1,196 bases of DNA. Origin: Escherichia coli. GTDB lineage: Bacteria > Pseudomonadota > Gammaproteobacteria > Enterobacterales > Enterobacteriaceae. Location of the stretch: NCBI RefSeq assembly GCF_003334385.1, contig NZ_QOWN01000122.1; one strand, written 5' to 3'. Position 1 is the stretch's first letter, and every line of letters begins with the position of its first letter. A program made the translations under genes and the position numbers. Below, piece by piece: positions 1 to 1,196 of this stretch. The notes under the pieces were generated by a model that ran no database searches, had not been told where the DNA came from, and saw nothing but the letters and a program-made list of their open reading frames with translations.

Positions 1-1196
1 CCCTTTAACATCCGGATGGTCAGGGAGACGGCGGACAGCACCACGGACCAACTGCAGAACAGAACGCTGTGGTCGTCATACACCGAAATCATCGATGTGA
101 AACAGTGCTACCCGAACACGGCCATTGTGGGGATGCAGGTGGATGCGGAGCAGTTTGGTGGTCAGCAGATGACGGTGAACTACCATATCCGCGGTCGCAT
201 CATCCAGGTGCCGTCAAACTATGACCCGGAAAAACGCACGTACAGTGGTATCTGGGACGGCAGTCTGAAACCGGCATACAGCAACAACCCGGCCTGGTGC
301 CTGTGGGACATGCTGACTCACCCGCGCTACGGGATGGGAAAACGCCTGGGGGCGGCGGATGTGGACAAGTGGGCGCTGTATGCCATCGGGCAGTACTGCG
401 ACCAGACGGTCCCGGATGGATTCGGGGGCACAGAGCCGCGGATGACCTTTAATGCGTACCTGGCACAACAGCGTAAGGCGTGGGACGTTCTCAGTGATTT
501 CTGCTCGGCGATGCGCTGTATGCCGGTATGGAACGGCCAGACGCTGACGTTCGTTCAGGACCGCCCGTCGGATGTGGTGTGGCCGTACACCAACAGCGAT
601 GTGGTGGTGGATGATAACGGCGTGGGGTTCCGCTACAGCTTCAGTGCCCTGAAGGACCGGCACACGGCGGTGGAGGTGAATTACACCGACCCGCAGAACG
701 GCTGGCAGACCTCCACGGAACTGGTGGAAGACCCGGAAGCCATACTGCGCTACGGACGCAACCTGCTGAAGATGGACGCGTTCGGCTGTACCAGCCGCGG
801 TCAGGCCCACCGTGCCGGGCTGTGGGTGATAAAGACCGAACTGCTGGAAACGCAGACGGTTGATTTCACACTCGGGTCTCAGGGGCTGCGGCACACACCC
901 GGTGACATTATTGAAATCTGTGATAATGACTATGCCGGGACCCTGACCGGCGGACGTGTCCTGTCCATCGATGCTGCCACCCGCACCCTGACGCTGGACC
1001 GTGAAGTGACACTTCCGGGGACAGGTGCATCGACGGTGAACCTGATTAACGGCAGCGGTAAGCCGGTAAGTGTGGACATCACCGCACACCCCGCGCCGGA
1101 CCGGATACAGGTCAGTACCCTGCCTGATGGTGTGGAGACATACGGGGTGTGGGGACTCTCCCTGCCGTCACTGCGCCGTCGCCTGTTCCGCTGTGT
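1..1196 (+). CDS. J: Internal fragment of a lambdoid phage central tail fibre / tip attachment (host specificity) protein, gpJ family; 5' and 3' ends lie outside the window
   Basis: Seen in sequence: frame 1 (codon phase 0 at base 1) is open across all 398 complete codons (1..1194, plus 2 trailing bases), with no in-frame stop. Recognised from memory, not from a search: long stretches of the translation match lambda gpJ, e.g. PFNIRM...TPDSTTDQLQN.TLWSSYTEIIDVKQCYPNTA, YSGIWDG..KPAYSNN.AWCLWDMLTHPRYGMGKRLGAADVDKWALY.IGQYCDQ.VPDGFGGTEPR, KAWDVLSDFCSAMRCMPVWNGQTLTFVQDRPSD, FRYSFSALKDRH.AVEVN, ELVED..AI.RYGRN..KMDAFGCTSRGQAHRAGLW.IKTELLETQTVDF, PGD.IEICD.DYAG..TGGRVL, TRTLTLDRE.TLP, LRRRLFRCV. 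G/C-rich third positions (ctg, ccg, acg, gcg) are typical of an expressed enterobacterial or phage gene. No start codon with a ribosome-binding site and no stop, so the gene is partial at both ends. Confidence 0.93.

Follow-up and report, generated by a model that had tools for sequence, protein, structure and literature searches.

Introduction

The closest described system is gpJ of phage lambda (1132 aa; PDB 8iyk, 8xcg and 9e7m), the hub of which comprises an HDII-insertion domain with FNIII-A inserted (residues 72–215), HDII, HDIII and HDIV, the last carrying an extra β-sandwich (residues 483–569). After the hub, the chain continues into a linker, FNIII-1, FNIII-2, a three-helix shaft, a β-prism fibre and the C-terminal receptor-binding domain (PMC10721106, PMC11101478). 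[quoted passage not shown] Upon binding of LamB at the far C-terminus, a rigid-body rotation carries HDII–HDIII and the HDII-insertion outward; it loosens the plug and enlarges the channel, initially about 1 nm wide, to about 3 nm (PMC11101478, PMC10721106). The same architecture of four hub domains is found in pb3 of phage T5 and in the J-like hubs of F-type pyocins and other siphophages; T5 differs in that HDI lies within the same protein, whereas the fibre and receptor-binding proteins are separate (PMC10721106).

Here we analyze a stretch of DNA of 1,196 nucleotides, referred to as the window, which a preliminary description made from the letters alone had placed inside a lambda J-like gene. 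We are highly confident that these 1196 bases come from the interior of gene J of a lambda-like siphovirus and cover residues 176–573, i.e. the baseplate-hub portion of the protein; that the source is a prophage or phage of Escherichia coli is almost certain. Nothing counts against this gene identity. The feature is already known; it is a textbook gene segment that is present in most E. coli genomes.

Results

A single coding frame enters and leaves the window

Frame +1 is open across the whole window, with 0 stops in 398 codons (1,196 nt), and the remaining five frames contain 3–18 stops each. In 20,000 mononucleotide shuffles of the window, frame 1 was never open, the mean number of stops being 13.4. 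The GC content at codon positions 1, 2 and 3 of frame 1 is 0.60, 0.47 and 0.75, respectively, which is the pattern of a GC3-rich coding frame and supports frame +1. Considering the stop counts, the shuffles and the codon-position GC, the single long coding frame that enters and leaves the window is real, and chance falls far short of explaining it. The window has neither the start nor the stop codon of the J frame and consists of 398 codons plus 2 bases. On the plus strand, positions 1–1196 were annotated as the internal part of the J gene (residues 176–573 and 2 bases) on the basis of the open frame, the gapless alignment with lambda gpJ, the identity to the J protein of E. coli DETEC-S792 and the match to NF049904. 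Against an E. coli genome average of about 51%, the window (1–1196) is markedly GC-rich, at 60.5% overall and 75% at third codon positions.

The frame encodes residues 176–573 of a lambda-type J protein

In a search of solved-structure sequences, all 398 residues aligned without gaps to residues 176–573 of lambda gpJ, with E values of 5.8e-220 for PDB 8iyk (1132 aa) and 3.6e-220 for PDB 9e7m. The open frame +1 and a gapless gpJ alignment at E of about 1e-220 bear out the proposal that the window is wholly internal to a lambda J-like gene. The position within the protein had been given as roughly residues 200–600, which is about 25 residues too far downstream; the actual placement is 176–573 of the 1132 residues in lambda. 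Relative to lambda (J02459), 303 of 398 amino acids (76.1%) and 76.4% of the nucleotides are identical. The nucleotide differences are distributed as 73, 45 and 164 over codon positions 1, 2 and 3, and the differing codons comprise 108 synonymous and 95 non-synonymous ones. The likeness to lambda gpJ thus extends without gaps over residues 176–573 at 76% identity, with the same Pfam domains at the same position, whereas the 24% of residues that differ are concentrated in the HDIV β-sandwich (54% identity).

Family profiles gave the same assignment. Pfam Phage-tail_3 (PF13550), the domain type that the preliminary description had named, matches residues 156–317 of the window translation (nt 466–951; model positions 2–159 of 164; E 9.5e-39), and FNIII-A_GpJ (PF24801) was found besides, with window residues 1–32 corresponding to model positions 94–125 of 126. 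The NCBIfam profile lambda_TipJ (NF049904) aligns at profile positions 176–573 of 1163 with 920.8 bits, its curated whole-protein cut-off of 1950 bits being beyond the reach of a fragment of one-third of the protein; the full-length J proteins in which this segment is identical (DETEC-S792) or near-identical (a second relative) score 2327.7 and 2135.9 bits, both above that cut-off. PHROG 31, 'central tail fiber J', matches the window translation with E 1.9e-245. Together with the lambda alignment, the lambda_TipJ and PHROG 31 matches confirm the homology to gpJ suggested at the outset. The J protein carrying the window would be about 1130–1180 residues long and belongs to a J lineage common to many Stx-converting and ECOR-derived lambdoid phages.

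The window covers the hub and not the fibre

Reading the published domain boundaries of lambda gpJ onto the gapless alignment divides the plus strand of the window into four parts. Positions 1–120 correspond to the end of FNIII-A (lambda residues 176–215), as indicated by PF24801 and the published boundary (PMC10721106), and are 90% identical to lambda. Positions 121–921 correspond to the hub core (lambda residues 216–482), i.e. the rest of the HDII-insertion, HDII, HDIII and the first part of HDIV, based on the gapless gpJ alignment and PF13550; the order of HDII, HDIII and HDIV inside nt 121–921 is taken from published text descriptions (PMC10721106, PMC11101478). The hub core is 79–85% identical to lambda, with dN/dS values of 0.10–0.16. 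Positions 922–1182 correspond to the β-sandwich in HDIV, called 'OB' in one paper (lambda residues 483–569; boundary from PMC10721106), and positions 1183–1196 to the return into HDIV strand β25 (lambda residues 570–573, –LFRC), as judged from the gpJ alignment and the published extent of β25, residues 570–578 (PMC10721106). With this layout, the window encodes the hub, or cone, of the tail tip, and neither the fibre shaft nor the receptor-binding domain, both of which lie downstream. The window had earlier been called the conserved structural part of a central tail fibre; it is indeed a structural segment of J, but one that belongs to the hub and cone and not to the fibre shaft (PMC10721106, PMC11101478).

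Purifying selection and a less conserved β-sandwich

In pairwise comparisons by the Nei–Gojobori method, the window has a dN/dS of 0.175 when set against lambda and of 0.08 when set against two Stx-type relatives, one of them an Stx1 phage. With dN/dS this low, the J frame is under purifying selection. The least conserved part is the β-sandwich insertion (nt 922–1182), which is 53–55% identical to lambda-type J, compared with 79–90% for the other segments, and has a dN/dS of 0.34, compared with 0.10–0.24 elsewhere in the window. Most of the few replacements within the window's own group also fall in this insertion, and it is inside the β-sandwich, at nt 1016–1076, that nucleotide alignments to several lambda-type phages break off. 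Because its dS of 1.16 is similar to that of the neighbouring segments (1.26–1.30), the divergence of the β-sandwich suggests a peripheral domain under weaker constraint rather than an older imported segment. Positive selection on the insertion found no support in the pairwise comparisons, where its dN/dS of 0.34 is well below 1.

The segment is abundant in E. coli and its phages

In the phage collection, 253 records match the window by megablast. Escherichia phage PhiR12_2 comes first with 98.9% identity, and the matches include about 100 Stx1- and Stx2-converting phages with 95–97%. A more sensitive search resolved two discrete groups, the window's own type, with about 150 phage records at ≥94.7%, and the lambda-type J at 77–79%. 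Among complete E. coli genomes, a match is found in 4,485 of 5,426 (83%), and the number of matching places per genome has a median of 3 and a maximum of 14. The best of these is DETEC-S792 with 99.7% nucleotide identity; the 4 differences are all synonymous, and the window protein is identical in 398 of 398 positions to residues 176–573 of the DETEC-S792 'host specificity protein J' (WP_271290539.1, 1157 aa). No identical nucleotide copy was found in the phage collection or the complete E. coli genomes, 99.7% being the best. The J genes of E. coli lambdoid prophages and Stx siphophages (e.g. DETEC-S792, Stx1_EH1995, CP-1639, VT1-Sakai and PhiR12_2) are 94.7–99.7% identical to the window in nucleotides across its length and share its residue numbering of 176–573, whereas they differ among themselves downstream of residue ~800, as well as in their head and tail-shaft genes, which lie upstream of L. 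The hubs of an F-type pyocin (25vf) and of other siphophages (9l9p, 23gd) also match, with E values of 1e-62 to 1e-91, but are far more distant in sequence.

Gene order in related loci

Six related loci with 96–99.7% identity to the window were read, those of DETEC-S792, PhiR12_2, Stx1_EH1995, CP-1639, E. coli 2015C-3121 and vB_EcoS-569R3. In all six, the order is H-M-L-K-I-J, with the tape measure gene H followed by M, L, K and I upstream of J, and wherever the record continues beyond J, as it does in five of them, lom and/or a side tail fibre gene (stf) lies downstream; lambda has the same gene order. These are the neighbours that the preliminary description had anticipated, and none of the six relatives has flanks other than tail genes. 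Its placement of the locus in a phage tail module therefore agrees with the gene order of the relatives, from which the context is read, since the 1196-base window itself has no flanking gene. For prophage context, completeness of the J gene and phage activity we likewise infer from the relatives, the window being without flanks.

The comparison of DETEC-S792 (9177–14487) with PhiR12_2 (7210–12486) revealed 99–100% protein identity in the window segment, and unrelated head, tail-tube and tape-measure genes. The DETEC-S792 backbone is HK97-like, that of PhiR12_2 is a lambda-like E/FI/FII/Z/U/V/G/T series, and nucleotide similarity between the two sets in no earlier than the M/L junction, from where it extends over L-K-I-J (92%). 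With backbones unrelated and similarity starting only at this junction, it follows that the tail-tip cassette moves between phage backbones.

The window is silent on receptor specificity

The preliminary description held that the window says nothing about receptor specificity, and this stood up to testing. In an alignment of six full-length J proteins, those with 97–100% identity over residues 176–573 reach only 24–62% over the last ~150 residues. Because J proteins with near-identical window segments differ this strongly at the C-terminus, the window gives no information on receptor or host range. Lambda J and the nearest relative share 42% identity at the C-terminus, and since the C-terminal domains of the relatives are only ~42% identical to that of lambda, use of LamB is not to be assumed.

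The J gene of PhiR12_2 (9476–12340) is annotated with 954 aa, and its identity to DETEC-S792 J collapses after approximately residue 850–950. The fibre region downstream (to ~17300) contains IS-type transposase and transposition-helper genes, and we take this to suggest that the distal tail-fibre region of PhiR12_2 is rearranged.

Repeats and a short match to an Aeromonas phage

No direct repeats were found in the window. Two weak inverted repeats, 79–81% complementary, were judged to be chance; one of them, 259–282/515–538, has arms of 24 nt that are 79% complementary, lie 232 nt apart and fall in the coding frame, with no support from structure or family.

Window positions 1–32 match Aeromonas phage AP1 exactly over 32 nt. 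This match was considered as a spacer-like or transfer signal and rejected, as the public record appears to be chimeric. The 32 nt are the end of a 94-nt J fragment that is 100% identical to J of the Stx-phage type and ends at window nt 32. In the AP1 record (MT713136.1, ~242063–242970; T4-like, 254 kb), read-sized E. coli prophage fragments stand side by side, and beside the J piece there are a 273-nt fragment of a P2-type replication gene A (99.6%) and a 271-nt fragment of a P88 tail gene (99.6%). No repeats were found around these prophage fragments. The record looks like a chimeric assembly or contamination.

Discussion

With 76% gapless identity to lambda gpJ, the homologue encoded by the window would gate the tail as gpJ does. 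The hub segment would build and gate the closed tail-tip cone as a trimer, together with the homologues of gpL and gpI. Once the receptor is bound by the distant C-terminal domain, the hub domains would swing outward, the tube would open and the DNA could exit. As for the β-sandwich, the only part of the otherwise conserved hub to diverge fast between J lineages, with a roughly threefold higher dN/dS, a role as an exposed decoration with a lineage-specific function, e.g. weak binding of cell-surface carbohydrates or escape from host defence or exclusion, is conceivable, although we regard it as improbable; alternatively, the insertion may be a loosely constrained spacer.

The segment could belong to a J gene in a defective or cryptic prophage remnant that produces no particles. 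Such a relic, which would leave the gene identity unchanged, is a possibility to be taken seriously, albeit an unlikely one. Many resident lambdoid prophages are defective, E. coli genomes carry several copies of the segment (median 3, up to 14), and the close relative PhiR12_2 combines a 954-aa J with IS-type transposase genes downstream. Against a relic stand the 398 intact codons, the differences from DETEC-S792 that are only synonymous and the dN/dS values of 0.08–0.18; an intact frame with synonymous-only differences fits recent or continuing selection for function. Furthermore, the close relatives PhiR12_2, PhiR5_1 and vB_EcoS-569R3 are recorded with a propagation host, which also argues against a remnant.

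Other readings replace the phage, or the coding frame itself. J-like hubs occur in tailocins, and with the F2-pyocin tail fibre protein (PDB 25vf) the same region gives a match at E 1.4e-91, so that the segment might come from an F-type tailocin, a phage-tail-like bacteriocin, or from some other tail-like particle that has no head. This origin is very improbable given that lambda gpJ is matched far more strongly (E ~1e-220) and that the window shares 95–99.7% nucleotide identity with E. coli prophages and Stx phages in which portal and capsid genes adjoin the tail genes. There is next to no chance that the true feature lies on the other strand or is non-coding, i.e. an antisense ORF, an RNA or a regulatory element. 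One antisense frame does have only 3 stops and contains a 291-codon ORF (214–1089, minus strand), but this ORF has no NCBIfam or PHROG match, and both the substitutions and the third-position bias fit frame +1 only; we regarded it as a shadow ORF cast by the GC3-rich J frame rather than a gene. Scans for non-coding features were likewise empty: no Rfam match on either strand of the window at E up to 1, no tRNA or tmRNA in the window, and 0 promoter-like and 0 terminator-like sites in it, no more than expected from shuffles. The window is best read, as before, as an internal piece of a phage J gene.

In practical terms, the window marks its source genome as carrying a lambdoid tail-tip gene and hence, probably, a prophage, and adds little beyond annotation. 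Caution is required in its use, since the segment, at 97–100% protein identity, is common to phages with strongly different receptor-binding ends and to phages with unrelated head and tail-shaft genes; it is therefore unfit for typing phage, receptor or host range.

Two of the related loci carry further genes beyond the tail. In DETEC-S792, the region downstream of the tail fibre genes (18481–24634) encodes a protein with a YadA C-terminal domain and an S6 family (autotransporter-type) peptidase, and in Stx1_EH1995, the cargo downstream of the tail fibre genes (11733–12719) is the T3SS effector NleC.
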